Shown: positions 618 through 64,000 of the stretch, piece after piece
How the letters are laid out: each line of letters starts with the position of its first letter
Numbering within the stretch: position 1 is the first letter of the stretch
DNA from: an uncultured bacterium
GTDB taxonomy: Bacteria > Abyssobacteria > SURF-5
DNA length: 64,000 nt
NCBI GenBank assembly: GCA_964607485.1
Contig: CAZSKP010000015.1
Location: forward strand, 1-64,000
Direction of reading: 5' to 3'
The notes under the pieces: generated by a model
Seen by the model: the letters and a program-made list of their open reading frames with translations, nothing else
Database searches by the model: none
Told to the model about the DNA's origin: nothing
Position numbers and translations under genes: made by a program

Positions 618-651
618 GCGAATCCCTCCTTGCCGACTGGAGAGGGGGAAG

Positions 652-1701: not shown

Positions 1702-1832
1702 TTCCCCCTAATATGAGATTTGATTTGTACTAAGACTCAACACGGAGCGCCTCTCAATGTCTGCGTCCGCAAGCACCGGCCATAATATTAACACAGCAAT
1801 TGGTCTTTATCAAGCGTCTATTGTGGGCCTAG

Positions 1833-1860
1833 CCCTGATGCTCCTGCCCCCTGATGCTCC
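1833..1860. repeat. Perfect 12-bp direct repeat CCCTGATGCTCC (16-bp period) in the divergent pfk/activator intergenic region
   Basis: Copies at 1833-1844 and 1849-1860, read directly. Confidence 0.7.
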
Positions 1861-1937
1861 GACCAGCTTGGTTTGCGCTCGCCGACGCGCGGGTGGTATC
1901 ATAGTATCGGCCCGCATCTGAACGGAGAAGACACGAA

Positions 1938-3326
1938 ATGCGCGAGGAGCAGTCAAACACCGATTTTTCGCCTTACTTTCTCAGATTGGCCGAAAATCTG
2001 AGGTCGATCTTCGACAGCCTTTACGACGGCATCATCACCGTGGACACGGCCGGAAGAATCCAGCAGTTTAACAAATCCGCGGAAAAGATAACCGGCTTCA
2101 CGGCAGATGAGGCGCTGGAAGGGCCGCTTCACAAAGTGCTCAGTTCCCGCAAGGAGGCGGGTCTCACCGAGAAGATAGTCGAGGCCATCCGCCAAGGCCA
2201 CCGTATCGAAGACTATGAGGTTGAAATAACGACCAAGGACGGGCGGCTCAAAACCATCAACATCACGAGCACGGTTCTCTCCGGGCTATATGGAGAAGAG
2301 CCTCCCGGCGCAGTCATCAGCATTGCAGACGTGACCGAAATCTACAGCCTGAAGCAGGAACTGCGGGGAAGATACAAGCTCGACCAAATCATAGGCAAGA
2401 ACTACCTGATGCAGCAGGTGTACAACAGAATTCTGCTCACGGCCGACAGCGATTCGACCGTGCTCATCCACGGTGAGAGCGGCACCGGCAAGGAACTCGT
2501 CGCGCATGCCATACACTATCACAGCCACCGCTCGGACGGTACGTTCATCAAGGTGAACTGCTCGGCGCTCGCCGAGACATTGCTCGAAAGCGAACTTTTC
2601 GGGCATGCAAAAGGCTCCTTCACGGGAGCGCTGTACGATAAGATAGGCCGCTTCGAGGCGGCCAGCGGCGGCACCATTTTCCTCGACGAAGTAGGCGATT
2701 TCAGCCCCTTCATCCAACTGAAATTGCTGCGCGTGCTCCAGGAAAAAGAGTTCGAGCGCGTGGGCGAAACCGTCTCGCGCAAGGTGGACGTCAGGATAAT
2801 AGCCGCGACGAGCCGCAACCTCATGGAACTGGTGCAGGACGGCCGTTTCCGTCCCGACCTGTATTACCGCCTGCGGGTGATTCCGATCTATCTCCCCCCT
2901 CTGCGCGAGAGAAAAGACGACCTTCCGCTCCTCATCAACCATTTCATCGACCAACTGAACAGGAGGATGGGCAAGAGAATCCGGGGCGTGAGCGAATATG
3001 CCATGAGCGCTCTGTGGAGTTATGAATGGCCGGGCAACATACGCGAACTCGAGCACGCCATCGAACATGCGATGGTCCTATCGCGCGGCCAGATGATCGA
3101 GTTCTCCGAACTCCCCATGGAAACAAAGAGGGGCAAGGAGTCGGAGTCGTCTCCGGATGTCAAGAAGCTTTTTCGACGCAACAGCCGCACCAACGCGGAG
3201 GCCGAGCGCTCCATGATAGAGCAGGCGCTCGCCGACGCCTCGGGCAATCGCACCCGCGCCGCCAGGATTCTCGGTATGAGCCGCACGACGCTGTGGCGGA
3301 AGATGAAGGCCCACTCAATAGACTGA
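1938..3326 (+). CDS. Sigma-54-dependent transcriptional activator (PAS + AAA+ + Fis-type HTH)
   Basis: N-terminal PAS (FNKSAEKITG), GESGTGKE, ESELFGH-KGSFTGA, FLDEVG, FRPDLYYRL, WPGNIREL, and C-terminal GNRTRAARILGMSRTTLWRKM. Confidence 0.95.
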   Translation: MREEQSNTDFSPYFLRLAENLRSIFDSLYDGIITVDTAGRIQQFNKSAEKITGFTADEALEGPLHKVLSSRKEAGLTEKIVEAIRQGHRIEDYEVEITTKDGRLKTINITSTVLSGLYGEEPPGAVISIADVTEIYSLKQELRGRYKLDQIIGKNYLMQQVYNRILLTADSDSTVLIHGESGTGKELVAHAIHYHSHRSDGTFIKVNCSALAETLLESELFGHAKGSFTGALYDKIGRFEAASGGTIFLDEVGDFSPFIQLKLLRVLQEKEFERVGETVSRKVDVRIIAATSRNLMELVQDGRFRPDLYYRLRVIPIYLPPLRERKDDLPLLINHFIDQLNRRMGKRIRGVSEYAMSALWSYEWPGNIRELEHAIEHAMVLSRGQMIEFSELPMETKRGKESESSPDVKKLFRRNSRTNAEAERSMIEQALADASGNRTRAARILGMSRTTLWRKMKAHSID

Positions 3327-3378
3327 GACCGACGCTGTTCTTCGAAATTCCACCAATCCCAACGCCCCACGGCGGGTT

Positions 3379-3762
3379 TCACGCGACGGCGATTGCCTCG
3401 ATTTCCACATCTATCGATTCTATCGGAGAGAGCGCCTGCACGGTAACTCGCGCCGGCTCCTGGCCCGGCGGGAAGTATTCGCGATACACCTCGTTCATCT
3501 CGTCGAAGTCCTTCACATCCCTAAGATAGACGACGACCTTCACAACGTCTTCCATTTTGCCGCCGGACGATTCTATGAGGAGTTTCATATTCTCCAAAGC
3601 TCTCCGCGTTTGCTCGGAAATGCCACCCGGTAGAATTTCACCCGTCTTGAGGTCTGCCGACAACTGACTTGTGAGGAACAAGAACCCACTCGCCTTGACA
3701 ACGTGATTGAATGGACCGGTCGGGCGCGCGAGGCTTCCGAAATCAAGGACCTCCTTTTTCAT
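3379..3762 (-). CDS. RidA/YjgF/UK114 family protein
   Basis: QTRRALENMK, VVKVVVYL, MNEVYREYF-PARVTV and VEIEAIA motifs. SD AAGGAG upstream. Confidence 0.9.
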   Translation of the reverse strand: MKKEVLDFGSLARPTGPFNHVVKASGFLFLTSQLSADLKTGEILPGGISEQTRRALENMKLLIESSGGKMEDVVKVVVYLRDVKDFDEMNEVYREYFPPGQEPARVTVQALSPIESIDVEIEAIAVA

Positions 3763-3843
3763 CCATATCTCCTTCTTAAATAGGAACAGACCCTTTTCTT
3801 TTCCCGGGGAGAGTTTGCGGTGAGTGCGTGCGCCGAATGCTCT

Positions 3844-4992
3844 TTACGCGAACATCGCGATGAAAAGGCCCGCCGCCGCGGCGGTTCCGATGACGCCCGC
3901 GAGGTTCGGACCCATTGCATGCAGAAGCAGGTAGTTCTCCGGGTCCTCCTCGAGGCCCACCATCTGCGAGACGCGCGCGGCCATGGGAACGGCGGAAACG
4001 CCTGCGGAGCCGATGAGCGGATTGAGCTTGTCTTTCAGGAAGAGGTTCATCGCCTTCACGGTCAGGATGCCGCCCATTGTGCAGACCGCGAAGTCGGCCA
4101 GCCCGAAGGTGAAGATAACGAGCGGTTTCGTGCTGAGAAACTTTTCGGCGCTCATGGTCGCGCCGACCGAGAGTCCGAGAAAGATGGTAACGATGTTCAT
4201 GAGCGAGCCCTGCGCCGTGTCGCTCAGGCGTCTGACCACGCCGCTTTCGCGCATGAAATTGCCGAGCATCAGCATTCCCATCAGCGGCATGATGGCGGGA
4301 ATCAACAGCGCTATCAGAGCTGTCCCCAGGAGCGGGAAGAGCAGCTTCTCTTTCTGCGAAACCGGCCTGAGCTGACGCATCGCAATGCGGCGCTCCTTTT
4401 TCGATGTCAGCAGGCGAATTATCGGCGGCTGGATGATTGGGACCATTGCCATGTACGAGTAGGCGGCCAGCGCGTTCGGGCCGAGCAAATGAGGGGCAAG
4501 GGCGCTCGTGAGATAGATGGTCGTCGGGCCGTCGGCGCCGCCGATTATACCCACGGATGCCGCCTCCTTCATCGTGAACCCGAATATCAGCGTGGCTGAG
4601 AACGTGATGAACACCCCAAGCTGAGAGCCGGCGCCCACGAGCAACGTCTTTGGGTTGGCGATCAGTGGGCCGAAGTCGGTCAGCGCTCCCAACCCGAGGA
4701 ATATGACGCAGGGGATGACCTCCCAGCCGATGCCGAAGTCATAGAAGATTTGCCACAGGTGCCTGTCTCCCGTTACCGGGTCAACGCCCATGAGCGGCGT
4801 CAGCGGGAAATTGACCATAAAAATCCCAAAGCCGATGGGGAGGAGCAGGAGCGGCTCGTATTTCTTCACAACCGCCAGATACATGAACAGCAGCCCTATC
4901 GCCCACATGACCAAGTGCCCCCATTTCAGGCTGAATATGCCCGTCTGAAGGGCGATGGTGTTCAGGACATCGAAGAATTCCTTTGATGACAT
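3844..4992 (-). CDS. oadB: Sodium ion-translocating decarboxylase beta subunit (OadB/GcdB/MmdB)
   Basis: YEPLLLLPIGFG, TDFGPLIANP, IIGGADGPT, AAYSYMAMVP, GVSAVPMAAR and HAMGPN signatures. Confidence 0.95.
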   Translation of the reverse strand: MSSKEFFDVLNTIALQTGIFSLKWGHLVMWAIGLLFMYLAVVKKYEPLLLLPIGFGIFMVNFPLTPLMGVDPVTGDRHLWQIFYDFGIGWEVIPCVIFLGLGALTDFGPLIANPKTLLVGAGSQLGVFITFSATLIFGFTMKEAASVGIIGGADGPTTIYLTSALAPHLLGPNALAAYSYMAMVPIIQPPIIRLLTSKKERRIAMRQLRPVSQKEKLLFPLLGTALIALLIPAIMPLMGMLMLGNFMRESGVVRRLSDTAQGSLMNIVTIFLGLSVGATMSAEKFLSTKPLVIFTFGLADFAVCTMGGILTVKAMNLFLKDKLNPLIGSAGVSAVPMAARVSQMVGLEEDPENYLLLHAMGPNLAGVIGTAAAAGLFIAMFA

Positions 4993-5085
4993 CTTATAAT
5001 TTTCCTTTTCTCAGGAACCGAATTTCAAGGGAAGCTGTGCGAACGGCAATAAGAGCGGAACGGCTCGACTTATTGGGATTATATT

Positions 5086-5598
5086 TTATTTGGGCCGGTC
5101 CGAAATGTCAAGCGCGGCCAAGGCGGTTCGCAGCTTTTCCGCGTTTACGGAAAAATCGTCGATGGCGGCCTTTTTCGAGTCCTCGATGTATTGCGTGTCC
5201 TCCGTCGTCAGGCGGCCTGCCCGAAAACACTCTTCGACCTCATCCGCATCGAGGACGATGTGCCTGCCGTCGGGGAAAAACCATATGTCGAGCAGCATGT
5301 CGAGATAGCTCAGCGAACCGTCTGAAATCGACACATCCCTGCAGATGTGCACCAGGTATCCCAGCAGCTCTTTCTCCGGCGAGAAGATTCCCCAGAAAAC
5401 ATAGGGGCGCGTTTCCCAATAGAGGGCGATGGTCACGCAGCCGGGGGGAAACGTTATGCCAAGCTTCGCGCTTGCGAACGTGCGGTCGCTGACGTACCGA
5501 AGAACGGCGTGGCCGGGCTCGCTGACCAACAGCTCACACTCATATCGCTCCGTCGGCTTGTTCACATGGCGTTTTATTTCGGTGAATGTTCTGTTCAT
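5086..5598 (-). CDS. DUF402 family protein
   Basis: YLDMLLDIW...VLDADE acidic motif typical of DUF402. Alternative start ATG 5622. Confidence 0.7.
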   Translation of the reverse strand: MNRTFTEIKRHVNKPTERYECELLVSEPGHAVLRYVSDRTFASAKLGITFPPGCVTIALYWETRPYVFWGIFSPEKELLGYLVHICRDVSISDGSLSYLDMLLDIWFFPDGRHIVLDADEVEECFRAGRLTTEDTQYIEDSKKAAIDDFSVNAEKLRTALAALDISDRPK

Positions 5599-5611
5599 GG
5601 TCGCCAAGAGA

Positions 5612-7042
5612 CTAGGGGACATCCAACACGATTGACTGATAAAAGTTCTTCATCTTCCAGGAAAGCGGAACCCCCTGGGGATAATTGGCCACGAAGTACG
5701 GGACCTTGACGTACGGATTCTGCTGGTCGAACCTGGCATAGTAACTGTTTATTATCACGTAGCAGTTCGCGAGCTGGTCGGCGGAGCGGACGTCATACAG
5801 GTTGTGGAACCGGTCGGGCTTTAGCTTGAAGCCCGACGTTATCCTCAGTATGGCCGTCGTGCGAAGGTCGGCATAGATGGGCTTCGGCGGCATCGTTCTC
5901 AAATACTCCTCCACCTTTCGCATGTTCCCGCCGCAAAGCTCGGGGGTCATGTTGGACGAGTATGAATACGGTTTCAGCAGGTACAGAGAAGTTCCCAGCA
6001 CCGCGACCACCACGGCCGAGCGATACCACCCCCGCAGCTGCATGAGCGCCCATGCGGCCAGCAGCATCAAGGGCACTGTGGCGAAGTTGAGGAACTTGCG
6101 CACTTTCACAATCGGAATAAGAGGGTGAAGACTCACGACGCCGAATTGCAGAATCAAGAGGATGGTTCCGGCCCACGCCAGAAGTATGAGCGCGCCGCGC
6201 TCGCGCTTGACGGCGCCGAGGATCATTGCGGGCACAAAGAGGAAGAAATACGGGCCGAAAACGGTCAAGTTCTGGAATACGACCGTCGGGTAGTACCACT
6301 GGCTGGTCGAACATTCGCCCGAGGTGTTGACGGCGATGGCCGCCTTCGCGTTCAGCCGAAAATTGTGCAGCGGGCTCAGCCCGTTCATAACATAATACAG
6401 GCTTTCTGAGAAGACAACCGCCAGAAACCCGGCCACGAACAACAGATGCGAGGACCTCAGTTTCTTCTCGAAGAAAGCGGTGTAGATGAGCAGAAAGGGG
6501 ATGAGAATAACCGCCATCGAACGGCAGGAGTATGCTATCGCCAGCAGCAGACCCGACAAGAAAAAGAGCGCAGGCCTGTATCTCTCGCTTCGGCCCGCCC
6601 GGATGAAGGCGAGAACCGATGCGGCCATCAGGAAGGAAAGCGGAATGTCGGGAAGTATCAACCCGGAATAGTGAATGTCAAGAGGATAGAACGCCAGGAG
6701 CAGGGCTGCGAGCAATCCGGTCCGTGCGTTGAGCACGGACTTGCCCAGGAAGAAGCACACCACCACCGCTCCGAGCGCGCTCAACATCGGCCAGAGCGCC
6801 GCCGAGAACTCGTTCGTCCCGAACAGCTCGTACGATGCAGCGATGGGCAGGAGCATGCCGTAGCGGGTCATCCAGTAGTTGCCGGACGGGTGGTAGGTTC
6901 CCTCGTATATCTGGTACGCGGCAAGGTAATAGTCGTGGTCGTCGCTGCCGATGGGCCCGGTGTAGAATGCAAGGCGCAGCCCGAGCGCCAGGAGTACAAT
7001 CAAGCAGAGAATAACGGCGTCTGCGTATCTCGGCCGCCTCAA
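5612..7042 (-). CDS. GT-C membrane glycosyltransferase (ArnT/PMT family 39-like)
   Basis: Polytopic membrane protein with LRL...SDD-DYY in the first loop and LFGTNEFSA; TTG start. Confidence 0.8.
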   Translation of the reverse strand: MRRPRYADAVILCLIVLLALGLRLAFYTGPIGSDDHDYYLAAYQIYEGTYHPSGNYWMTRYGMLLPIAASYELFGTNEFSAALWPMLSALGAVVVCFFLGKSVLNARTGLLAALLLAFYPLDIHYSGLILPDIPLSFLMAASVLAFIRAGRSERYRPALFFLSGLLLAIAYSCRSMAVILIPFLLIYTAFFEKKLRSSHLLFVAGFLAVVFSESLYYVMNGLSPLHNFRLNAKAAIAVNTSGECSTSQWYYPTVVFQNLTVFGPYFFLFVPAMILGAVKRERGALILLAWAGTILLILQFGVVSLHPLIPIVKVRKFLNFATVPLMLLAAWALMQLRGWYRSAVVVAVLGTSLYLLKPYSYSSNMTPELCGGNMRKVEEYLRTMPPKPIYADLRTTAILRITSGFKLKPDRFHNLYDVRSADQLANCYVIINSYYARFDQQNPYVKVPYFVANYPQGVPLSWKMKNFYQSIVLDVP

Positions 7043-7052
7043 TTGGCGCTCC

Positions 7053-8336
7053 TCACATGCTCGTGGCTTTTCGCGTTACCTTGATGGCGCAGAACTCGCC
7101 GCACATCGTGCAAACTTCACTGTCCGCCGGACGACTGCTCTCGCGCAGCGCGCGCGCCTTCTCCGGGTCTATCGCGAGCGCGATCTGGCCTTCCCAATCG
7201 AGCTTCTTCCGACATCGGGCCATGGCATTGTCGCGTTCGATAGCGCCGGGAACGCCCCGCGCGACATCGGCGGCATGGGCGGCTATGCGGGATGCTATGA
7301 CGCCTTCTCTTACGTCCTCCACGGTGGGAAGCCTCAGGTGTTCGGACGGCGTGACGTAGCACAGGAAGTCTGCGCCCGCCAACGCAGCCAGCGCTCCGCC
7401 TATGGCGGCGGTGATGTGGTCGTATCCGGGCGCGATGTCTGTGACGAGCGGGCCGAGCACATAGAACGGCGCGCCCCGACAGAGCCTTTTCTGGAGGACC
7501 ATGTTGGCCTCTATCTGGTCGAGGGGAACGTGGCCGGGCCCCTCGCACATCACCTGCACCCCGGCCTCCCAACAGCGCTCGACGAGTTCCCCTTGCAGAA
7601 TCAGCTCTTGAACCTGCCCTCTGTCGGTCGCGTCGGCGAGACATCCCGGGCGCATCCCGTCGCCCAGGCTGAGCGACATGTCGTACTTTTTGGCGATGGA
7701 GAGCAATCGGTCGAAATGCTCGTACAGGGGGTTCTCCTTCTTGTTGAAGGCCATCCACTCGAGCATCAGCGCACCGCCCCGGCTGACGATGTCGAGTATG
7801 CGCGCGTGTTTCTTCAGCCGGGCGACCGACTCCTGCGTGACGGTGCAGTGCACCGTAACGAAGTCCACGCCCGCGCTCGCATGTTGTTCGATGGTTTCGA
7901 AAATCTCGTCGGCTTCGAGTTCGACGAAGGATTTTCCCCGCTGCCTGGCATACAAAGCGGCTTGGTAAATCGGAACGGTTCCCACGGGGACGGTGGAGCG
8001 CGCGAGCACCTCGCCGAGCACGTCGGCCACCGGGCCGCCCACGCTCAGGTCCATAACCGTGTCGGCGCCCGCTGCAATTGCGACCTCGAGCTTCTGCATG
8101 TCCTCCTTGATGTCCGCGTGGTCGCCTGAGGTGCCGATGTTGGCGTTGACCTTTGTCCTGAGGCCTTTGCCGATTGCCAGCGTATCAGCGTTCGGATGGC
8201 GATTGTTACGCGTGATGATAATGCTGCCCTCGGCGATTCCCTGCTTTATGTATTCGGGAGAACGCCTTTCGGCTTCGGCCACCTGTTCCATTTCTGTCGT
8301 GATGACGCCCTGTCTGGCTTTCAAAAGCTGAGTCAT
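7053..8336 (-). CDS. thiC: Phosphomethylpyrimidine synthase ThiC
   Basis: MTQLLKARQG start, TKVNANIGTS, ADTVMDLS, SRGG, LGDGMRPG, EGPGH, PGYDHIT, CYVTPSEHL and CTMCGEFC. The 634-aa ORF in the track over-extends upstream. Confidence 0.97.
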   Translation of the reverse strand: MTQLLKARQGVITTEMEQVAEAERRSPEYIKQGIAEGSIIITRNNRHPNADTLAIGKGLRTKVNANIGTSGDHADIKEDMQKLEVAIAAGADTVMDLSVGGPVADVLGEVLARSTVPVGTVPIYQAALYARQRGKSFVELEADEIFETIEQHASAGVDFVTVHCTVTQESVARLKKHARILDIVSRGGALMLEWMAFNKKENPLYEHFDRLLSIAKKYDMSLSLGDGMRPGCLADATDRGQVQELILQGELVERCWEAGVQVMCEGPGHVPLDQIEANMVLQKRLCRGAPFYVLGPLVTDIAPGYDHITAAIGGALAALAGADFLCYVTPSEHLRLPTVEDVREGVIASRIAAHAADVARGVPGAIERDNAMARCRKKLDWEGQIALAIDPEKARALRESSRPADSEVCTMCGEFCAIKVTRKATSM

Positions 8337-8341
8337 TCGAA

Positions 8342-9004
8342 TCAACCTTTCTTTTCCGCAAGTGTTCGGGCCGCGAGGGCTTCTCGCAGGCGTTTCACAA
8401 TTTCGGAGGCGGCCGCTTCGACATCGGGAGCGGACAGAACGGACGAAATCATCCCGATTCCCGCCGCGCCAGCTGATACTACCTCTTCGATCTCGGACGC
8501 TCCAATGCCGCCCAGCGGGAAGACGGGCAGTCTGACGGTTCCGCACACCGTGCGCAGCGACTCCACCCCGACGGGCGGGCCGTACCGCGCCTTCGACGGA
8601 GTATGATAGACTGGTCCATAGGTGATGAAATCGGCGCCCTTTTCCGCCGCCTCCATCGCTTCCGCGACGCTGTGAGTGGAAACACCTATGAGCATTCCCG
8701 GCCCGAGCACCTTCCGGCAGACATCGGCGGGCAGCCCATCCTGCGGCAAATGCACGCCGTCGGCTCCAATGGCGCGCGCCAGCGAGGCGTTGCCGTTGAC
8801 GAAAAGCTTCGCCTGGAATTCGGACGTCAAGCGGCGGAGTTCGGTGCCCAGCTCGAATCGCTCGCGCGTCGAGAGGTCCTTCTCGCGCAACTGGACCGCG
8901 CGCACGCCTCCACGCAGGGCTCGCTCCACCCCGGAGACCAGGTCGCCGCCCCCGCACTGATTCCGGTCGGTTATCAGGTATAGATCAAACTCAACTCGCG
9001 GCAA
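8342..9004 (-). CDS. thiE: Thiamine-phosphate synthase ThiE
   Basis: [34 protein letters not shown] and LGGI motifs; thi operon context. Confidence 0.9.
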
Positions 9005-55953: not shown

Positions 55954-56361
55954 TCAGCGGCGTCGTTGCGAGCCGGCCTGCAGCCGTCTGTTCATCATGG
56001 CGACCCGGCCCGCCATGGCCCATGAGCCGGCGGTTATGCCCGTGTGGGCGTGAGGCGCCTCGGATTTCTGTTCCGATTCCATGGCAATTGCGATGGCGGC
56101 TCCTATGACGGCGACCATTTCTTCCTCGCCCGCCTCCCGCTCGTGTATTTCGGCCAGGCCGGCGGCCGGCGTTTCCACTTTATGTTTTTGCGCGCCTCTC
56201 GCCTCCTGCCGTGCGACGATTCGTGAGACGATCGCGCCGAGCAGTTGCATCGCGATCAGCAAAATCGCGAGCACGATGAACACTCCCACAAACCGAATGA
56301 GCAGGGTGCTCATTATGAAGCCCCACGGCAGCTCGACGGCTCTTTGGATCAGCTCTTGCAC
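55954..56361 (-). CDS. OadG/GcdD/MmdD-like decarboxylase gamma/delta subunit
   Basis: Single TM with GVFIVLAIL, a linker, EEMVAVIGAAI, and C-terminal SWAMAGR..M; SD GAGGT before GTG 56361. Confidence 0.78.
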   Translation of the reverse strand: MQELIQRAVELPWGFIMSTLLIRFVGVFIVLAILLIAMQLLGAIVSRIVARQEARGAQKHKVETPAAGLAEIHEREAGEEEMVAVIGAAIAIAMESEQKSEAPHAHTGITAGSWAMAGRVAMMNRRLQAGSQRRR

Positions 56362-56536
56362 GGGCACCTCGCGCGTACGCGTCAAGAAGCGCGGTTTTCA
56401 CACATTTGCGCCAACGACGCCTATTATACAAATTCTGGGGAAAAAATCAACTCGACGGCGGCAGGTCGGGGAAATTAAGCAATACAAAAGATACATTCGC
56501 GGGAGGCATTGGAGCGACGAGAGGACATCTTCTTCC

Positions 56537-57160
56537 TTATTTCTGTTCGTCCAGCTTGACGCGGGTGCTGATGAACACGTGGTCGTCCTCTATCGAGTAG
56601 GCGAGACCGGTCTGCTGACAGATGCGCGTTATGATGGTCCTGAGCGGCAGCGGGTTGTCTGTCCTGATGCTGACTTCCGAATCCAGCAGGCCCTTGGATT
56701 CGGCGAGCACCGTCTCATCCACTATGATGTTCACATCGGTCAAGAATGTAAGCGACTTGGCGACGTTGCGGACGTCCTCCTCCGAGAAATCCACCTGAAC
56801 CAGTTGATTCAGCTTCTGGTAAAACTTGTCCTGGGCCTCGCCCTTGTCCTTTATCTCTTCGATGACTTTCTTGCAGCACTCTATCGATTCATCCACCATG
56901 CGATCGATGCCGTGTGGACGCTCGTCGGGCAGGTTGGGATAATCTTTCCAGATGTTCTCGTACCCGCGGAGCGCCTCTCTGTACTTCCGCAGCGCGAGCG
57001 CGTAGTCCTTTCCCTCGAGCGCTTCCGCAGCCTGTTCCTCTATGGGTTTCACCTCGTGCAGAAACACGAACAGCGCGGATTTTTGAATCTCGAACGCCCC
57101 GACCTCGACCGAGGTCATGCACGACAACAGGACGATGAGAAGCAACGTCGCTCGCTTCAT
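56537..57160 (-). CDS. Exported protein: helical (TPR-like) domain plus secretin/TonB N-terminal (STN-like) domain
   Basis: Signal peptide; KDYALALRKYREAL helix pair; C-terminal VDF...VNIIVD...PLRTII..I..GLAYSIEDDHVFIS pattern. Confidence 0.6.
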   Translation of the reverse strand: MKRATLLLIVLLSCMTSVEVGAFEIQKSALFVFLHEVKPIEEQAAEALEGKDYALALRKYREALRGYENIWKDYPNLPDERPHGIDRMVDESIECCKKVIEEIKDKGEAQDKFYQKLNQLVQVDFSEEDVRNVAKSLTFLTDVNIIVDETVLAESKGLLDSEVSIRTDNPLPLRTIITRICQQTGLAYSIEDDHVFISTRVKLDEQK

Positions 57161-57864
57161 CGGCTTTCACCCGACAGCAAATTGCGGAAAGTTCCCGAAA
57201 TGTTGTCGTAGATGTGCTCCAACCCATGTTTGCCGAACTCTATCAGCTTCAGCGGATTGGCGGCGATCTCGAGGCGGCCGGCCTTGACGGCGTCGATTAT
57301 GGCCTCCGTGTTTTTTTCGGCCTCGACGAGCGAGTAGGCCGAGCCGAATTTCTCCAGGTGATGACAATCGGACGTGCACACCAGCGGGAGCCCATGCTTC
57401 GCGGCCGTCCGGAGGGCGAACATGTTGAAATTTATCCGGCTGTGATAGAACCATGAAAATTCTAACGCATCAAACACATCGATGTTTCTTCCCACAAGCC
57501 ACATGAGAGAAGAAAAGTCGGGGAAATATGGATGAGGAGCCACGACCATATTCTCAGGAGTTCGGAGCCTCCTCAGGTCGTCAAGGCTGCGTGCCTCGAG
57601 GATTTCATCGCGCGCGTTCACAACAAGCACGTGCTTTCCCCGGATATTCGCCTCGACGCCCGGAATGAGAACAATTCCCCGCTCACGCGCATAGTCCCGC
57701 AGATAGCTGCTGAAAGAAACGGCGTTGTGATTCGTGATGCTTATCGCGTCGAATCCCAGGTAGTACGCCTTATCTATCAACTCACAGCTTGTGTGCAGGA
57801 CTGGCTCTTCCGGGTCGTCTGCAGTGTGTGTATGAAGGTCGACTTTCAGAAATTTCTTGGGCAT
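57157..57864 (-). CDS. PHP domain metal-dependent phosphoesterase
   Basis: VDLHTHT, ITNHN, PGVE, APHPY and SDCH; start uncertain (57864, 57885 or 57906). Confidence 0.88.
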   Translation of the reverse strand: MPKKFLKVDLHTHTADDPEEPVLHTSCELIDKAYYLGFDAISITNHNAVSFSSYLRDYARERGIVLIPGVEANIRGKHVLVVNARDEILEARSLDDLRRLRTPENMVVAPHPYFPDFSSLMWLVGRNIDVFDALEFSWFYHSRINFNMFALRTAAKHGLPLVCTSDCHHLEKFGSAYSLVEAEKNTEAIIDAVKAGRLEIAANPLKLIEFGKHGLEHIYDNISGTFRNLLSGESR

Positions 57865-57963
57865 CTCAACTTCGATTTCTCTCATCAGGCGAAGCTTCTC
57901 CCACAATTTTAGTTGTGCAAAACAGATTTGTCAACGATGCCAGTGTTACATCAGTTATTCTGG

Positions 57964-57980
57964 TGCATAATTTGTGCCAG
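57964..57980 (-). promoter_or_regulatory. Putative sigma-54 (-24/-12) promoter
   Basis: Minus strand CTGGCACAAATTATGCA (GG-N10-GC) upstream of the PHP gene. Confidence 0.6.
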
Positions 57981-58007
57981 AAAAAGATTCGCTCAGCCTC
58001 CCGACGA

Positions 58008-58036
58008 TTGACTTTTCATATTTCGGGAAATATAAT
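58008..58036 (+). promoter_or_regulatory. Sigma-70 promoter of the kinase-Clp operon
   Basis: TTGACT-17 nt-TATAAT. Confidence 0.8.
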
Positions 58037-58081
58037 GCGGAAGGAGCGGAGTGTGTCCCAACTCTGAGGGAGGGGGCTCTG

Positions 58082-60286
58082 GTGTTCGATATTGGCCAGT
58101 GGATTGAAGACCAATATCTCGTCCTCGAACGACACCGCGGCAGGCGGTGGACCGTCTATGTGGTGCAGGACCGCATTTCGGAGAATGTGTTCGTCATCAA
58201 GAGACCCTCGGAAGTTCTGCTTCCCGACCCCCTCGCGGCGGACCATTTCGTCAACGAAGCGAGAATCTGGATAAACATCGGCGAATGCGATGAGGTCGTC
58301 AACGCGTACCTTATCAAGGAGTTTGAGGGAATACCCCACCTGTTCCTTGAGTACACTGACGGCCCCAGTCTCGAAGACATCCTAAGCTCGCGCCCCGGGA
58401 AACCGCTCCCCACCGACCAGGCCGTCGCCCTCATGAGGCAGCTCATTAACGGCATGAAGTTTCTTCATTCGGCGAGTCTGACGCCTGGAAATCGGGGTGT
58501 CGTACACGGCAGCCTGACCCCCCACGCCATCTTGACCAAATCGGGGAACATCAAGATAACCGACGTCGGCCTGGCCCACGCGTTGCGCCAGTCTTCCAGG
58601 ATGCTTAATGCCGGCCACTTTCTCTGGGACATTTCATACATGGCGCCCGAGCAGTTACAGGACCTCCGCGAGGCCGACAAACTGACCGATATTTACTCGT
58701 TCGGTGCAATAATGTACGAAGTCGCGACGGGTACGTCGCCGATGATGGGGAAAAAACCCGAGGACCCCTTGAGCGACATCGTCCGGTTCGAGCCGGCTCA
58801 CCCCCGGACGCGCAATCGCTCGTGCCCTCGGTGGCTGGAGGAAACGATTCTGAAATGCATGGCGCGGGAGCGGGCAAACCGCTTCCAGAGCTTCGAGCTG
58901 ATTGACGCGTTCGTGAGCGAAGTGCTCAGGGGAGAGGAGGAAGCCTCGCCGGCTCGTGACGCGAAGGAGGAAACGGATTCCGCCCATACCTCGCGGGTGG
59001 CGCGTGTGCGCGGAGTGGCGAAGAAGGAATCGCGCCGGCTCGACCACTATTACGTCGGCGTCGAACACCTGATGCTCGGCCTCATTGCCGAAGAGGAAAG
59101 CGTCGTTGTGAGTTGTTTCGGCGACGCGGTAGACGCGGAACGGCTCCGTTCGGAAATTCTCTCCCATTTGCCGAAGGGGGAGGGGCCGTGGTATTGGGAC
59201 GATATAAGAAAGACCCCGCGGTACAAACGCGTAATGAAGCTGGCGCGCAAGATAAAACGGGAACACAGCGACGACCGCATGCTCCCACAACACATCCTCC
59301 TCGCGATACTGAAGGAGGGACGGAACGTGCCGGTCCGCGTGCTCAAGGGATTGAACGTCGATGTCAAAGCCGCGGCCCGAAACCTGCGGCGGGAGATGAA
59401 GCGCAGAAGGCCGGCAATCTTCGTTGCCGATTCCGAACCTGGCGCGATTAGTTTCACGATCAAGGTGGCCTGCACGACCGACATCCCCTGTTCCATTCCC
59501 TTCGTCGGCCGGCGCTCGGAACTGGAAAGAGCTCGCGGGCTGCTCCTCGACGACAGAAGAAGCGTCATGATAGTGGGCGAACCGGGGGTCGGAAAGACGG
59601 CCTTCGTGCACGAACTTGAGTGTCTTGTTTCGGAAGCGTCGGGCGACGCAGGGCGCGAGAGCGGCGGCCTGGTCAAACTTCACGTCGCGTCCCTCATCGC
59701 GAGCACCGAGGGAGGGGAACAGATTATCTCTAATCTCACGGACGCCATCAACTCGGTCGTCGGTTCCAAATCCATCCTGGTGATAGAGGACCTTCCGGTG
59801 GTTGTCGGCCTCGGCGGAAAACTGCCGCCGGGGGCTGTCGGCAGGATGCTCGAAGAGTACATCGTGTCCAAAGGGCTGGTCGTCGTGGCAACGACCACGC
59901 GCGCAGGGTACGTGTCGTGCGAAGCGGAGCACGAGAACCTGGTCCCGTTTCTCGAAGTGATAAACCTGCGCGAGCCTTCGAGTGAAGAGACGTTCGAGAT
60001 GCTGGTGGCGGCGAAGGAGACTCTTGAGAACGAGCACTCCGTCAGGATCGTCGATGAGGCGCTGACCGCCTCGGTCGACCTTTCGCGAGAGATCCAGGGG
60101 AGAGCGCTTCCTGCAAGGGCGTTCGAGCTGCTCGACCGCGCATGCGTCGGCGCGAGGTTGAGCGCAAGCACGCCTGAGCAGGCTCGCGAGCAGATCGTCA
60201 TCGATGCGGAACGAGTGGAATATGCCCTGGCCGAAGCTCGGCAGCTCGAGCGGGCTCGGTCCGACCAAGAGCGTGGAGTCGTATAG
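58082..60286 (+). CDS. Fusion protein: Ser/Thr pseudokinase + Clp N-terminal repeat domain + ClpA/B/C NBD1-like AAA+ domain
   Basis: Kinase part: VIK, FVNEARIW, KITDVGLA, YMAPEQ, DIYSFG. ClpN: HYYVGVEHLMLGL and TPRYKRVMKLA...QHILLAIL. AAA+: FVGR, GEPGVGKT, LPARAFELLDRAC. Start placed at GTG 58082 (SD GGAGG, downstream of the promoter). Confidence 0.88.
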   Translation: MFDIGQWIEDQYLVLERHRGRRWTVYVVQDRISENVFVIKRPSEVLLPDPLAADHFVNEARIWINIGECDEVVNAYLIKEFEGIPHLFLEYTDGPSLEDILSSRPGKPLPTDQAVALMRQLINGMKFLHSASLTPGNRGVVHGSLTPHAILTKSGNIKITDVGLAHALRQSSRMLNAGHFLWDISYMAPEQLQDLREADKLTDIYSFGAIMYEVATGTSPMMGKKPEDPLSDIVRFEPAHPRTRNRSCPRWLEETILKCMARERANRFQSFELIDAFVSEVLRGEEEASPARDAKEETDSAHTSRVARVRGVAKKESRRLDHYYVGVEHLMLGLIAEEESVVVSCFGDAVDAERLRSEILSHLPKGEGPWYWDDIRKTPRYKRVMKLARKIKREHSDDRMLPQHILLAILKEGRNVPVRVLKGLNVDVKAAARNLRREMKRRRPAIFVADSEPGAISFTIKVACTTDIPCSIPFVGRRSELERARGLLLDDRRSVMIVGEPGVGKTAFVHELECLVSEASGDAGRESGGLVKLHVASLIASTEGGEQIISNLTDAINSVVGSKSILVIEDLPVVVGLGGKLPPGAVGRMLEEYIVSKGLVVVATTTRAGYVSCEAEHENLVPFLEVINLREPSSEETFEMLVAAKETLENEHSVRIVDEALTASVDLSREIQGRALPARAFELLDRACVGARLSASTPEQAREQIVIDAERVEYALAEARQLERARSDQERGVV

Positions 60287-60637
60287 TTGAAGTCCGACAA
60301 GTCCCCCGCCGGGAAAACCGATAAAATCATCGTCGAGGTCATGAACGGGCCTGAGGACGGGCGCGTTGTCGTGTGCGACAAGATTCCTGTATCGATAGGC
60401 AGAGGAACCGACAACCGAGTATGCATTCCCTACGACCATCTCGTTTCGCGGCATCACGCCAAGATCGCAGGATCAGAGGGTAAGTTTCTCCTGTGCGATT
60501 TGAACAGCACCAACGGCACTTTCGTGGGGAGCGAACGGGTTCGGGAAGACACGCCCATTGAGCCCAACAAGCTGTTTCGCGTGGGCGCGACCCTGCTGAT
60601 GCTCAAACTCCGCTCAGCCGACGCATCGCCGAAATAG
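60287..60637 (+). CDS. Stand-alone FHA domain protein
   Basis: IGR, VSRHHA and DLNSTNGTFV; the TTG start abuts the upstream stop. Confidence 0.93.
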   Translation: MKSDKSPAGKTDKIIVEVMNGPEDGRVVVCDKIPVSIGRGTDNRVCIPYDHLVSRHHAKIAGSEGKFLLCDLNSTNGTFVGSERVREDTPIEPNKLFRVGATLLMLKLRSADASPK

Positions 60638-60646
60638 ACGAGGAGC

Positions 60647-62557
60647 GTGACGTCCATGGCACATGAGAAGGAGCCTGCGGCCGCCCGAAATCGTACGAAA
60701 CACCGCCGCAAGCTTCCCTGCGCCAACCACCCGAGAAATCCCGCCGCAGCCCGCTGCGAGGTCTGTGGAAATCCGATATGCAGGGAGTGCGTGCAGTTCT
60801 ACGACGGCGCGCACATCTGCGGTGAGCTGTGCTGGAACAAGAAGCGGTTGGACGAATCGGCAAAAGCCTCCAAAGAGGACAGGCTCCGGCGGCGACAAAA
60901 GGAAAAGAAAGCAAACCGTGCCGTGACGGTGGGGCTGTTGGCGGCGCTGGTCGTGGTTCTGGGGGCGGTCGGCGCTTTCGTGTACACTGTCGTGTCCGAC
61001 CACTCGGGAGACAAAGCCTGGGAATTCGAGAATCCGGGAGGGTCCTTCGATTACGCGGTCCGACCGAACCTGAACTCCGTCTTCCTTCTGTCGGCGGACG
61101 GAAACGTAGAGACAATCGACGCCTTGACCGGCGTGCTAAAATGGCGCGTCAAATTGCCCGAGAGGTCCGGCCACTCGGAACTGATGATAATCGATGAAGA
61201 CCACTGTCTCGTCTATTTCGGGAACACGGTCTTGCTCTGTAAATCGGGCCGAGCGGCGCCGGCGTGGGAATTCAGTGCACCACAGCCTTTTCTGTGCGCC
61301 GAGCCGGTGCATTTGGATGACCGTCTCTACGCGGTAAGCTCCCCGGTCGGCTCCTTCTTCCAGGTGTTTCCCGAGCTGGAAGAGATGAGGTCTGCGCTCT
61401 TGATGTCTCCCGAGCTCGAATCGCTGAGGTCCGTGGTCCGGGCGCCGAGGCCGCAGTCAGATTCGGCCGGCGCAATCCCGCCCCCACGGGAACAACCGGA
61501 GACGGCCGGCGAGCAAGCCGAAGTGGAGCGGCTCTCCACGGTCAGCGCCGTGGACATGGCCTCCGGCAAAGGACTGTGGGACACCGAACTGGTAGGTCTT
61601 AGGGTCGAGGGCCTGCTGGCGGATGAAAGTCGGGTCTACGCGGTCGGCTATCAGTGGAGAGAATACGGGAGGTACGGCGCGGCCCCGGAACCGGAAGAGC
61701 CCAAACAGGAGGACTCCGCCGGCGACCAAGAAGCCTCACACGTCAGCTCCACCCAGCTTTGGGCGCTGAACGCGACAACCGGCGAGCCGGAGTGGAAGCT
61801 GGAAGGGATGGGCAATTTTCTGGTTTCTCCCATGAAGAGCGACGAGGGCATCGTCTTCTCGACAATGGAGAATATCTACTTGATCTCGCCCGAGGGAAAG
61901 ATAAAATGGAAATATTCCCTCGGCGAGAGAGGTGTTTACGCGTTTCAGCCGAGCTATGACAAGCTCTTTGTCTCAACGGGCGACGGATTCCTTGTCTGCA
62001 TCGACCTCGCCTCCGGACGCGAAAAGTGGACGACCGAGGTCGGCATGGGAGCCGACAGGATAGTCGTCAGTTCTCCGCTCGCATACGTCTCGTCACTGGT
62101 CAAGGTGGAGAAGGAAGCCCGGAGAGTAATAATGACGAAACGCTGGAAGGGGTCGGAGGACCTGTTGAAAAAAGCGCTGAAGCGAGACGAAGTGAGCTAT
62201 GAAAGAGTCATCCACGGCATCGACGTCGAGAGCGGTGAGACGCGCTGGTCGATTCCGAAGATCGAGGGCGAGTTCGAATATGGGCGGGGATTTCTGTACG
62301 CGTTGCGCTATTTCGAGAGGCTGCAACTCCTCGATGCCTCGGTCGACTCCAGCCAGATAGCCAAGACGGTGTCGAATCTGGGCGCGTACGACTGCCTGAC
62401 CGGCGAGAAAGTCTGGGAGACCGGTATTGACGGCTACGCATCGGACCTGCGTCTGACCCCATTCGTCGGCATCGTGAAGTCACGCTCGCAAGTGCTTACC
62501 GTCGGCGCGGCGGCCGAACAGCGTCCCGGACGCCTGATCGGAATTTCTCTCGAGTGA
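60647..62557 (+). CDS. B-box-type zinc finger + single TM + PQQ/BamB-like beta-propeller protein
   Basis: CANHP...CEVCGNPICREC...CGELC; hydrophobic span; repeated (A/C)-x-(D/N)-x-x-(T/S)G-x-x-x-W docking motifs. The start may be ATG 60656. Confidence 0.85.
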   Translation: MTSMAHEKEPAAARNRTKHRRKLPCANHPRNPAAARCEVCGNPICRECVQFYDGAHICGELCWNKKRLDESAKASKEDRLRRRQKEKKANRAVTVGLLAALVVVLGAVGAFVYTVVSDHSGDKAWEFENPGGSFDYAVRPNLNSVFLLSADGNVETIDALTGVLKWRVKLPERSGHSELMIIDEDHCLVYFGNTVLLCKSGRAAPAWEFSAPQPFLCAEPVHLDDRLYAVSSPVGSFFQVFPELEEMRSALLMSPELESLRSVVRAPRPQSDSAGAIPPPREQPETAGEQAEVERLSTVSAVDMASGKGLWDTELVGLRVEGLLADESRVYAVGYQWREYGRYGAAPEPEEPKQEDSAGDQEASHVSSTQLWALNATTGEPEWKLEGMGNFLVSPMKSDEGIVFSTMENIYLISPEGKIKWKYSLGERGVYAFQPSYDKLFVSTGDGFLVCIDLASGREKWTTEVGMGADRIVVSSPLAYVSSLVKVEKEARRVIMTKRWKGSEDLLKKALKRDEVSYERVIHGIDVESGETRWSIPKIEGEFEYGRGFLYALRYFERLQLLDASVDSSQIAKTVSNLGAYDCLTGEKVWETGIDGYASDLRLTPFVGIVKSRSQVLTVGAAAEQRPGRLIGISLE

Positions 62558-62583
62558 ACGGCAGATGAACAATCTGGGAGACT

Positions 62584-63708
62584 ATGACCGGGAACAGGAG
62601 AAAAGAGGCAGGTCCCTCCCGCGGCGAGGCCGTCGCCAACTACATCACCGACCTTCTTAAGAACTCTATCGAGATAGTCACCGACTATTCCTGCAAGTAT
62701 CATCCCGACCGCGCCGCCACCGCCGTCTGCGAATGGTGCAGCGCCGACCTTTGCTCCGATTGCGCGCACGTTCGAGGCCATCGGCTCGTGTGCCGCAATT
62801 GCATGGGCTCACTCGACAGGACGTTTGCGGGAACGGGCGCCGCGTCGGTTCTGACGCGGCTGCTCACGCACCCAATTGTGGTCGCATTGGTGCTGACGAC
62901 ATTGCTCGGAGGCCTGCTCGTCGGCCTCGGCAGGATTCATCGCAAGGGACTGCTGGGGGAAGTTCCGGCGACCGCCAGCGGGGTCGAAAAACAGTTTCGT
63001 CTGAAGCTCGTCCTGTATGCGCAGAAAGCCGACCGCATCGAAACCCACGCCGATGAACTCCAGAAAGTCGGCCGCACCGATGAGGCGGCGGCGGACTATG
63101 ACCGCGCCAGGTCCATCCACGAGATGCTGGCCCGCGAGGCCGCCGGCAGATGGGAGGAGCAGGCTTTCACTCTGGCGAGAGCGAGAATCCTGGAAAAAAC
63201 GGGCGAACGCGCCTATGCCCAAGGGCTGTACGAAAACGTCGCCAACCTGCCCGGCGCAGACAAAACCTATCCCGTCATCGCGCAGTTTCATCTGGCCAAA
63301 CTCCAGGAAAAGACGAACCCGGAAGAGGCGGTGGCGACGTACACGCGACTCCTGCGCGACGTCAACTTCGTTCCCGACAATTTCTCCCGCGCGGTCAACA
63401 TGATGGCGCATTCGCAGGGCGCTTACAACTACGACAGCCGGATACAATTTCACACGCGCACCGACTTCGATTTCGACACGGTCAAAGTGGAGACGCTGCT
63501 GGAGATGGGTCGGCTGTTGGCTGCTATGGGACGTACCGACGAGGCTGCGTTCAGACTGGGGCAGGCGGCCAACGAGGGATTTGGCACGAAGCTGGGCGAG
63601 CAGGCCACGGCTGAACTCAGGAAGCTCCACACCGTCGATGTGCCCGAGGAACCTCCCGAAGAAGAGGCCGAGAAAGAAGAAGAACTGACCATAACTCACT
63701 TCGACTGA
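62584..63708 (+). CDS. B-box-type zinc finger + single TM + TPR-like protein
   Basis: CKYHP...CEWCSADLCSDC...CRNC; TM IVVALVLTTLLGGLLVGL; repeated helical hairpins (LARARILEKTG, FHLAKLQE, LEMGRLLAAMGR). Confidence 0.82.
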   Translation: MTGNRRKEAGPSRGEAVANYITDLLKNSIEIVTDYSCKYHPDRAATAVCEWCSADLCSDCAHVRGHRLVCRNCMGSLDRTFAGTGAASVLTRLLTHPIVVALVLTTLLGGLLVGLGRIHRKGLLGEVPATASGVEKQFRLKLVLYAQKADRIETHADELQKVGRTDEAAADYDRARSIHEMLAREAAGRWEEQAFTLARARILEKTGERAYAQGLYENVANLPGADKTYPVIAQFHLAKLQEKTNPEEAVATYTRLLRDVNFVPDNFSRAVNMMAHSQGAYNYDSRIQFHTRTDFDFDTVKVETLLEMGRLLAAMGRTDEAAFRLGQAANEGFGTKLGEQATAELRKLHTVDVPEEPPEEEAEKEEELTITHFD

Positions 63709-63744: not shown

Positions 63745-64000
63745 ATGCTTTTTCCGGTCAAAATTGAGACAGAGATAGAAAAGTTTCCGATCTTCACCTA
63801 TCTCATAATAGTCGCAAACGCGGTCGTATTCCTGTCCATGCGGTTCCTTCCCGCGTCGGCGCTGGAAATGGCGTATTACGATTACGGATTCATCCCCGAC
63901 CACATCGACGCCGTCTCGATGTTCACGTCGCTGTTTGTCCACGCGGGCTGGCTGCACATCGTTGGCAACATGTATTTTCTGTGGCTGTTTGGGCGGGCGG
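63745..64000 (+). CDS. Rhomboid family intramembrane serine protease (runs off the window end)
   Basis: Not in the ORF track. Translation from ATG 63745 is MLFPVK...PIFTYLIIVANAVVF...YGFIP...FTSLFVHAGWLHIVGNMYFLWLFG. Confidence 0.92.
   Translation, partial: MLFPVKIETEIEKFPIFTYLIIVANAVVFLSMRFLPASALEMAYYDYGFIPDHIDAVSMFTSLFVHAGWLHIVGNMYFLWLFGRA

Follow-up and report, generated by a model that had tools for sequence, protein, structure and literature searches.

The gene at 58082..60286 on the forward strand of a 64,000-nucleotide stretch of DNA from an uncultured sediment bacterium of the SURF-5 lineage (assembly GCA_964607485.1, contig CAZSKP010000015.1, positions 1 to 64,000; the whole stretch is called the window below) encodes a protein, named PKClp here, in which a pseudokinase is joined to a double Clp_N repeat and a single ClpC-like AAA+ D1 domain with its lid. 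Judged from the alignments, the nucleotide-contacting residues are kept in this protein, and the catalytic, inter-subunit, and substrate-gripping residues are gone or variable. The same pattern recurs in 29 other clusters of homologous proteins at 48-70% identity, and the degenerate motifs are therefore family traits and not a private decay of this copy. PKClp is probably a non-catalytic, nucleotide-binding scaffold or switch, which would act as the cytoplasmic hub of a five-gene membrane phospho-signalling module.

Residues lost and kept in the two halves of PKClp

The longest open reading frame (ORF) at this locus starts with the GTG at 57974 and continues on the forward strand to the stop codon at 60284-60286, which gives 770 codons in the ORF list and its translation. 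The start at 58082 is also a GTG, with a GGAGG-rich sequence on its 5' side, and the N-terminus MFEIGQW, which is found in 26 of the 29 homologous clusters, aligns to residue 37 of the 770-residue frame, i.e., to this second GTG. With this start, which agrees with the N-terminal ends of the homologs, the product is likely to have 734 residues. The residue numbers given here refer to the 770-residue frame, from which 36 is subtracted to obtain those of the 734-residue protein. The motif counts were taken from an alignment of 30 rows, consisting of PKClp and the 29 clusters, where some rows are partial and the number of sequences varies accordingly. The coordinates of all motifs and domains are collected in Table 1.

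In the kinase half, the Gly-rich loop is replaced by RHRGRRWTVY. The family is basic at this position, mostly R-G-R-R-W in the 27 sequences covering it, and a near-invariant Trp occupies the place of the third Gly; the GxGxxG loop of an active Hanks kinase is absent. The catalytic loop reads HGSLTPHA in place of HRDLKPxN. Its His is present in 30/30 sequences, the Arg of HRD is absent from all 30, and Gly stands at the Arg position in 29/30. The position of the catalytic Asp is occupied by Asn in 21 sequences, Gly in 5, Asp in 2, Ser in 1 (PKClp itself), and Val in 1, which means that the Asp is absent from 28/30. Lys was never seen in the family alignment at the position of the catalytic-loop Lys, and the closing Asn of the loop, found in 24/30, is replaced by Ala in PKClp.

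Other residues of the kinase half are kept. The β3 Lys (K76 in PKClp) is found in 28/28 sequences, the APE motif (residues 224-226) in 29/30, and the DxG motif has its Asp in 29/30 and its Gly in 30/30, with Ile (20), Val (7), Pro (2), or Met (1) between them. The metal-binding Asp of an active kinase is thus present in the family, and the change from DFG to D[IV]G would not be inactivating by itself, as the Asp and Gly are conserved. The original prediction, which was made from the letters of the window, had listed the β3 Lys, the αC Glu, and APE as retained. The Lys and APE were found across the family, but the αC Glu (E95) occurs in only 1/28 sequences, that of PKClp, where Lys (16) or Arg (7) is common in the others; it is therefore not a retained functional feature, and the Lys-Glu salt bridge is no family trait. 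Compared with PknB and Stk1/StkP, PKClp shares the fold, the β3 Lys, the Asp of DxG, and APE, and has lost the catalytic Asp, the Arg of HRD, the catalytic-loop Lys, the Gly-rich loop, and the αC Glu as a family feature. These motifs make it well supported that PKClp is not a canonical kinase.

The ClpC-like half begins with the double Clp_N repeat that is characteristic of class I Clp/Hsp100 unfoldases. Clp_N is the most conserved part of PKClp and holds most of the invariant columns of the alignment, and an invariant, family-specific insert, PKGEGPW.W, lies between the two repeats. The Walker A motif of a class I D1 domain is also present, with its Lys and Thr each in 28/29 sequences. The Walker B motif is altered to ILVIED, and among 29 sequences its last two residues are ED in 22, EN in 3, EG in 2, and DD in 2; the DE of the hhhhDE consensus occurs in none. 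In the Arg-finger segment, the RR pair is found in 3/29 sequences, the second Arg in 6, and the first Arg in 10, and PKClp has Pro-Phe there. A further loss, which the original prediction had missed, is that of the D1 pore loop, where PKClp has TEGGEQI in place of KYRGEFE of ClpC; the Tyr is gone, and this stretch is acidic and different in each of the 29 sequences, in place of an aromatic pore loop. The protein stops after AAA_lid_9; it has no M-domain, Pfam gave no match to AAA_2 (D2) or the ClpB D2-small domain, and the second ring with the ClpP-docking part is lacking. All 9 of the orthologs compared end at the same place.

In the same alignment, the ClpC and ClpB of this genome carry all the canonical D1 motifs (both with FIDELH), and the Clp part of PKClp shares 27% identity with this ClpC and 23% with this ClpB. 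In comparison with ClpC of Bacillus subtilis, Staphylococcus aureus, and the genome itself, PKClp shares the double Clp_N, the large subdomain of D1 including Walker A and sensor 1, and also the lid of D1, whereas it lacks the pore-loop Tyr, a conserved Arg finger, the M-domain, D2, D2-small, and the ClpP-docking part, has Glu-Asp in Walker B, and carries a kinase fold in front. The altered Walker B, the replaced Arg finger, and the missing second nucleotide-binding domain (NBD2) and ClpP-docking part had been noticed beforehand, and all three are borne out by the ClpC/ClpB alignment and by Pfam. It is well supported by these motifs that the ClpC-like half would be unable to thread or unfold substrates.

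The domain matches and the predicted structure agree with this description. On the 770-residue frame, Pfam assigns Pkinase to residues 60-308 (E 1e-25), Clp_N to two stretches (E 1e-18), the first at 349-399, AAA_16 from residue 509, and AAA_lid_9 to residues 669-762 (E 8e-14). NCBIfam gives PknB-type kinase models and the N-terminal half of the ClpB/ClpA/ClpV models (model positions ~3-440 of 730-850), where all the matches are far under the full-length cut-offs. The best sequence match in the PDB is residues 6-441 of B. subtilis ClpC (E 3e-34), which cover the N-domain, D1, and the lid, and nothing further. The AlphaFold2 model, calculated with the family alignment, has a mean predicted local distance difference test (pLDDT) value of 81.6 and a predicted template modelling score (pTM) of 0.80, and low pLDDT is limited to two inter-domain linkers and one kinase loop. 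Foldseek with this model retrieved ClpC, Hsp104, and ClpA chains and the kinase domains of PknB and Stk1; ClpC was the best match, and the template modelling (TM) scores of the listed PknB/Stk1 kinase chains were 0.78-0.85 when normalised to the target length. The layout of kinase, Clp_N repeats, and Walker A GEPGVGKT, ending without NBD2, was thus predicted correctly, and the motif strings quoted with it are all present as written in the translation and in the alignments to ClpC and to the genome's ClpC and ClpB. A Kyte-Doolittle scan with a window of 19 residues gave a maximum of 1.62, at the Walker B strand, and no strong hydrophobic segment; PKClp is proposed to be a cytoplasmic protein.

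Family, selection, and relatives in the genome

A word-indexed protein search gave 388 matches among 8000 scored candidates. The top 30 of these, namely PKClp and the 29 clusters, share one Pfam string with E values of 7e-202 or better, after which the E value falls to 2e-48. Four of the 29 clusters have named sources, three in Candidatus Abyssobacteria/Abyssubacteria and one in Hydrogenedentota. In a profile search over 1.84 billion representatives at 50% identity, the best 150 matches consisted of two full-length proteins, five fragments, and otherwise kinase-only or Clp-only proteins, and there are no distant full-length relatives among them. In the species-level collection of the phylum, PKClp is a single-copy gene in 10/11 genomes, i.e., in its own genome and in all 9 others of its family. 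It was not found at E 1e-60 in the one genome of the sister family, where the only Clp_N genes are of the ClpC and ClpB types.

The 30 aligned sequences contain 58 invariant columns. Selection was analysed with a codon alignment of nine orthologs, consisting of the window and eight related loci (L001-L008), and the frame is open in all 9. The synonymous sites are near saturation, with a mean proportion of synonymous differences (pS) of 0.71, and the whole-gene synonymous rate (dS) was defined in 31/36 pairs. Because of this saturation, the ratios of nonsynonymous to synonymous rates (dN/dS) are rough and usable only in the three closest pairs, where they are 0.12 (L001/L002), 0.19 (L004/L005), and 0.20 (window/L007). 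The proportion of nonsynonymous differences (pN) is lowest in Clp_N (0.20) and increases through the kinase (0.28), AAA+ D1 (0.35), and lid (0.36) to the linkers (0.40 and 0.53). The PKClp gene is under purifying selection. A homolog alignment and dN/dS had been proposed as checks of the original prediction, in which the intact frame was taken to argue against simple decay; the substitutions proved to be shared across the 30 sequences, and this argument is strengthened by them, by the dN/dS values of the three closest pairs, and by the single-copy occurrence.

The genome that carries PKClp has 4.70 Mb, is 97.5% complete, and encodes a complete ClpC as well as ClpB and ClpP; PKClp therefore does not replace the real Clp machines. 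A gene for an McsB-type arginine kinase (PF00217, E 8.5e-64) lies directly upstream of the 825-residue clpC (contig C8:134648-137900), and this uncultured, deep-branching lineage thus has the Firmicute-style pair of phospho-arginine (pArg) kinase and ClpC. Positions 57900-62600 of the window are contained in four DNA runs from a single sediment study, and no RNA run is listed as containing them.

The genome has 27 kinase-domain matches. PKClp is the weakest of those that span most of the Pfam model, with 94 bits compared to 133-206. At least eight genes for protein kinases also lie in tandem (contig C2:81266-96190, reverse strand), with open frames of 278-1051 residues. The kinase in the genome nearest to that of PKClp is P0126, with 35% identity over the kinase (E 4e-48; the next best has E 1e-25). 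This protein of 446 residues has intact HRDLKPSN, DFG, β3 Lys, and αC Glu, followed by Clp_N without an AAA part, and is active-looking. It is collinear with PKClp over 431 residues at 31% identity (E 3e-58); the Clp_N part of the pair, taken alone, was not detected by tblastn, being too diverged. Orthologs of P0126 are found in only 4/10 family genomes. The P0126 locus (contig C20:58000-70000, positions 103-8680) contains VWA-FecR-FHA-DUF6982 and CHASE2-cyclase-kinase genes, P0126 itself (5703-7043), and an FHA-GAF-cyclase gene.

Outside the family, the closest kinase is P0032 (37% identity), which combines an active-looking kinase domain with a zinc ribbon and with a PQQ propeller; this fusion connects the kinase lineage with the protein type encoded two genes downstream of PKClp. 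Two metagenome proteins, P0165 (1319 residues) and P0251 (1142 residues), have a kinase fused to a complete two-ring Clp ATPase; the kinase is N-terminal in P0165, where the kinase and D1 motifs are intact, and C-terminal in P0251. P0226 is a D1-only Clp protein with an intact Walker B and without the pore loop or the RR pair. In Anaerolineae, proteins of ~650 residues (L023:7962-9905, L041:7923-9881) combine Clp_N with the kinase-like TCAD9 of "ternary complex" systems, which is an independent pairing. These separate fusions indicate that kinase-like folds and Clp parts were joined several times, and the doubly dead kinase-Clp form is confined to the PKClp lineage.

Conserved gene cluster

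As listed in Table 1, the PKClp gene is followed on the same strand by genes for an FHA protein, two membrane proteins with a B-box-like zinc finger (B-box-PQQ and B-box-TPR), and a rhomboid-family protease, and two divergent genes lie on its other side. The FHA gene abuts the PKClp stop codon, and the B-box-PQQ gene starts ten bases past the FHA gene. The conservation of this cluster was examined by tblastn of the neighbour proteins of the window against the eight related loci. The same gene order was found for FHA in 8/8, B-box-PQQ in 8/8, B-box-TPR in 7/8, and rhomboid in 7/8 loci, where the last two were not found in L003 by tblastn. The upstream pair of PHP and 207-residue proteins occurs in 6/8 loci; of the remaining two, L008 lacks DNA on the upstream side, and L006 carries different genes in this place. 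The glycolysis genes pgk and gap lie a short way upstream of the module, and the base composition has no break; the PKClp locus is a core-genome context.

Table 1. Features of PKClp and of its neighbours in the window (residue numbers of the 770-residue frame).
Feature	Position	Strand	Basis or remark
PKClp coding sequence	58082..60286	+	734 aa; in-frame GTG at 57974 would make 770 aa
Replaced Gly-rich loop RHRGRRWTVY (residues 53-62)	58130..58159	+	Translation, family alignment
Pseudokinase domain	58151..58897	+	Pfam Pkinase, residues 60-308; E 1e-25; Foldseek TM 0.78-0.85
Catalytic loop HGSLTPHA (residues 178-185) for HRDLKPxN	58505..58528	+	Family alignment
DVG (residues 197-199) for DFG	58562..58570	+	Family alignment
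Double Clp_N repeat (ClpC-type N-domain)	59018..59392 (59018-59170, 59243-59392)	+	Pfam
Walker A GEPGVGKT (residues 535-542)	59576..59599	+	Lys 28/29, Thr 28/29
Place of D1 pore loop, ASTEGGEQII	59699..59728	+	ClpC/ClpB have G(T/S)K(Y/F)RG.FEERL there
Walker B ILVIED (residues 601-606)	59774..59791	+	Aligns to ILFIDE of ClpC
NLVPFL (residues 655-660) at Arg-finger segment	59936..59953	+	Aligns to ALERRF / ALARRF
D1 lid (AAA_lid_9), end of protein	59978..60259	+	ClpC would go on to M-domain and D2
FHA protein, 116 aa from TTG (start uncertain)	60287..60637	+	Pfam FHA E 3e-15; abuts PKClp stop
Membrane protein B-box-PQQ, 636 aa: B-box-like zinc finger, helix 93-111, PQQ-type beta-propeller	60647..62557	+	Pfam, hydropathy
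Membrane protein B-box-TPR, 374 aa: B-box-like zinc finger, helix 98-116, TPR region	62584..63708	+	Pfam, hydropathy
Rhomboid-family intramembrane protease gene, start	63745..64000, runs off window	+	Rhomboid E 6.5e-8
PHP-family metallohydrolase, divergent	57157..57906	-	Pfam; link to module uncertain
207-aa protein, signal-like N-terminus, divergent	56537..57160	-	No Pfam family; link to module uncertain

The functional residues of the neighbours are conserved as well. The Gly-Arg, Ser-x-x-His, and Asn-Gly loops form the phosphothreonine (pThr) site of FHA domains, and 9/9 FHA orthologs have the corresponding GR, SRxH, and S(T/A)NGT without any difference, as expected for a pThr reader. The Cys/His ligands of the zinc finger are invariant in 9/9 B-box-PQQ and 8/8 B-box-TPR proteins. 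In both membrane proteins, the Kyte-Doolittle scan gave one strongly hydrophobic 19-mer, which comes directly after the finger (2.55 in B-box-PQQ and 2.46 in B-box-TPR); our reading is that the finger would be inside the cell and the propeller or TPR region outside. A complex prediction for PKClp with the B-box region (residues 1-92) of the PQQ protein gave 0.00 in two runs made without control runs, which speaks neither for nor against binding.

Several smaller observations concern the surroundings of the cluster. The PHP neighbour was considered as a protein phosphatase, and this candidate was dropped, as it has only weak, generic matches to PHP metallohydrolases. An ORF of 376 residues at 56081..57211 (forward strand) is probably a shadow frame, with 36-50% identity in relatives compared to 67-73% for the overlapping gene at 56537..57160 on the reverse strand, whose product has a hydrophobic, signal-like N-terminus in the Kyte-Doolittle scan. 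Between gap and the module, a small ORF at 55954..56385 (reverse strand) matches the oxaloacetate decarboxylase gamma chain (E 1e-8) and has a homolog upstream in L003. The sister-family genome (G001), which is without the fusion gene, contains small ORFs matching the part of the PQQ protein that consists of B-box and helix, at C99:4717-4995 and C2:70887-71117 (E 1e-13 and 1e-7).

Proposed role and comparison with known systems

If PKClp is a scaffold or switch as proposed, each part of the module can be given a role. Considering its conserved P-loop, the AAA+ module would bind ATP and hydrolyse it poorly or not at all, and this cofactor site would serve for structure or for switching. An interaction or allosteric role, perhaps with ATP binding, is proposed for the kinase fold, and Clp_N, as the most constrained part, would be the most likely docking surface for partners. 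The FHA protein would read pThr, which an active kinase encoded elsewhere in the genome may write. On its membrane side, the module would consist of both B-box proteins and the rhomboid protease, where the protease may process the B-box proteins. A membrane signalling module is preferred to a decoy of ClpC because the operon is conserved.

A scaffold, adaptor, or decoy had been suggested in the original prediction. The negative part of this suggestion is well supported, as the shared substitutions, purifying selection, and single-copy occurrence show that PKClp is not the product of simple decay and is neither a canonical kinase nor an unfoldase; the three positive roles are not told apart by these results.

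Several points weigh against the proposed scaffold role. The gene neighbourhood is the one line of evidence from which a hub could be read. The β3 Lys, the Asp of DxG, and the catalytic-loop Asn are conserved and may point to some catalysis, either residual or of an unusual kind; Asp is found at the HRD position in two family members, and the RR pair in three. The Glu-Asp in Walker B is a conservative swap, which might support slow hydrolysis in the 22/29 sequences that have it. In the kinase fold, the near-invariant Trp that replaces the third Gly of the Gly-rich loop might fill the ATP pocket, so that this fold may or may not bind nucleotide.

These points lead to the alternative that PKClp has remained enzymatically active, at a low level or in an unusual way. 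Its kinase fold would then transfer phosphate slowly or carry out some other chemistry, with Asn in place of the catalytic base, or its AAA+ module would serve as a timer through slow ATP hydrolysis with Glu-Asp in Walker B. The β3 Lys in 28/28, the Asp of DxG in 29/30, the catalytic-loop Asn in 24/30, Walker A in 28/29, and the kept sensor-1 Thr are consistent with it, as are HGD in 2/30 and RR in 3/29 sequences. Among the eukaryotic ATP-binding pseudokinases, human HER3 offers a parallel, as it has Asn at the Asp position of HRD and no αC Glu, keeps the VAIK Lys and the Asp of DFG, binds ATP with weak activity, and is an allosteric partner. PKClp resembles this pattern of lost and kept residues, although only by analogy, with no relationship beyond the kinase superfamily. 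However, the position of the catalytic Glu in Walker B varies among D, N, and G, the Arg-finger positions are unconserved, the Gly-rich loop, the αC Glu, and the catalytic-loop Lys are all lost, and PKClp itself has Ala for the catalytic-loop Asn. A remaining enzymatic activity is therefore considered rather unlikely. Neutral decay of a kinase-Clp remnant might explain why many catalytic motifs were lost at once, but it is refuted by 9/9 open frames, dN/dS of 0.12-0.20, the 58 invariant columns, and the shared substitutions, and has practically no weight.

PKClp could instead be a decoy or regulator of the McsB/ClpC/ClpP system, competing for pArg substrates or adaptors or poisoning ClpC rings through its D1. 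In favour of this, mcsB immediately precedes clpC in the genome, clpB and clpP are also present, and the N-domain is the most constrained part of PKClp. There is also a precedent in ClpC2 of mycobacteria and Streptomyces, a homologue of the ClpC N-domain described as a non-proteolytic, pArg-responsive sensor and an antibiotic sponge, in which a single site of the two for pArg is retained (PMC13345244, PMC10030653). ClpC2 shares with PKClp the use of a ClpC N-domain outside an unfoldase, but it is a small DNA-binding repressor that has no kinase or AAA part, and the site residues of PKClp are partly changed. E32 and E106 are named as the pArg determinants of ClpC, with E106 called the most relevant (PMC12583610). 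In the PKClp family, the equivalent of E32 is Glu in 30/30 sequences, whereas at that of E106 there is Gln (28/30) or His (2/30), and the residue before each of the two positions is Val or Pro in place of the Thr of ClpC. Reading of pArg by the PKClp N-domain is possible and not indicated by these residues. Mixed rings of ClpC and PKClp seem unlikely because the identity between the Clp part and the resident ClpC is only 27%, and the gene lies away from clpC, in a conserved cluster that encodes membrane proteins; a decoy function is accordingly held to be unlikely. A role of the kinase-like/AAA protein as the sensor or switch of a conflict system or an anti-phage defence is suggested by matches of the kinase domain to the PADLOC models PD-T4-6 and mad6 and to NCBIfam MADS6, and by the fusion of Clp_N to TCAD9 of the "ternary" systems in Anaerolineae. 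The PADLOC matches, however, span the generic kinase fold only, and the four neighbours tested gave no match to defence models except a weak one for PHP. The gene occurs once in each of 10/11 genomes, its neighbours are the same in each related locus, and glycolysis genes adjoin it, which is what would be seen for a core gene and not for a mobile island; a defence role appears very improbable.

Among the described systems, the closest architecture in a 2025 review of bacterial pseudokinase families is that of CP1, which combines a cytosolic (pseudo)kinase with a predicted ATPase of COG3899 without a membrane helix, occurs in cyanobacteria and proteobacteria, and consists of pseudokinases in ~40% (PMC12599244). 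PKClp and CP1 have in common that a P-loop NTPase is linked covalently to the (pseudo)kinase, but the NTPase of CP1 is not a Clp D1 and is without Clp_N. The pseudokinase of M. tuberculosis MviN, once phosphorylated by PknB, recruits FhaA (PMC12599244), and a bacterial pseudokinase with an FHA partner gene is common to both cases; in MviN, the fusion partner of the pseudokinase is a lipid II flippase, and a Clp part is missing. Its pseudokinase belongs to ActPs3, described in an atlas of bacterial kinases as being without the VAIK Lys. A kinase-PQQ subfamily is also noted in the atlas (bioRxiv 10.1101/2025.01.12.632604). The PQQ neighbour of PKClp matches the propeller of AfsK, which represents this kinase-PQQ type (CCM1 subfamily), whereas the propeller is a separate membrane protein here.

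According to its main text, the atlas contains 42 families of bacterial Ser/Thr kinases, of which seven are pseudokinase families (ActPs1-3, GLW, CP1, DYD, and DLHK), and in all seven the VAIK Lys is lost in at least some members (bioRxiv 10.1101/2025.01.12.632604). PKClp, with the β3 Lys in 28/28 sequences, does not fit these seven as they are described, the comparison being made with the descriptions and not with the authors' family models. The words "Clp" and "AAA" are absent from the main text of the atlas, although its supplementary tables may list such an architecture, and in the review (PMC12599244) Clp appears in the reference list only. No description of a kinase/Clp_N/D1 fusion was found by literature searches on bacterial pseudokinases, Clp/AAA+ and FHA proteins, and TCAD9, apart from what the supplementary tables of the atlas may hold. 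This architecture is new; pseudokinases and degenerate AAA+ modules are known, so PKClp does not represent a new category.

The proposed scaffold can be extended to a more specific and speculative picture, which we regard as having a rather small chance of being correct. PKClp would then be the cytoplasmic receiver of an undescribed bacterial transmembrane pathway, in which the two B-box proteins, as receptors with a propeller or TPR domain outside and the zinc finger in the cytoplasm, dock on the invariant PKGEGPW.W surface of the N-domain and are cleaved by the rhomboid protease, and the dead modules might act as switches gated by nucleotide and phospho-marks (pThr via FHA and possibly pArg via the N-domain) that hold or release the zinc-finger stubs left by the cleavage. 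If this is true, it would be the first case in which half of an unfoldase and a kinase were both turned into readers in one signalling scaffold.

The reach of the finding is limited because the organisms are uncultured. Within these limits, PKClp is a fusion of two unrelated ATP-using machines that both appear stripped of catalysis with their nucleotide-binding residues under selection, encoded by a core single-copy gene of an uncultured lineage whose named relatives are Candidatus Abyssubacteria/Abyssobacteria. It bears on what the N-domain and D1 of ClpC can do outside an unfoldase and adds to the bacterial pseudokinases, which have barely been studied, and the five-gene module may represent a new path by which signals pass from the surface of the cell into its cytoplasm.

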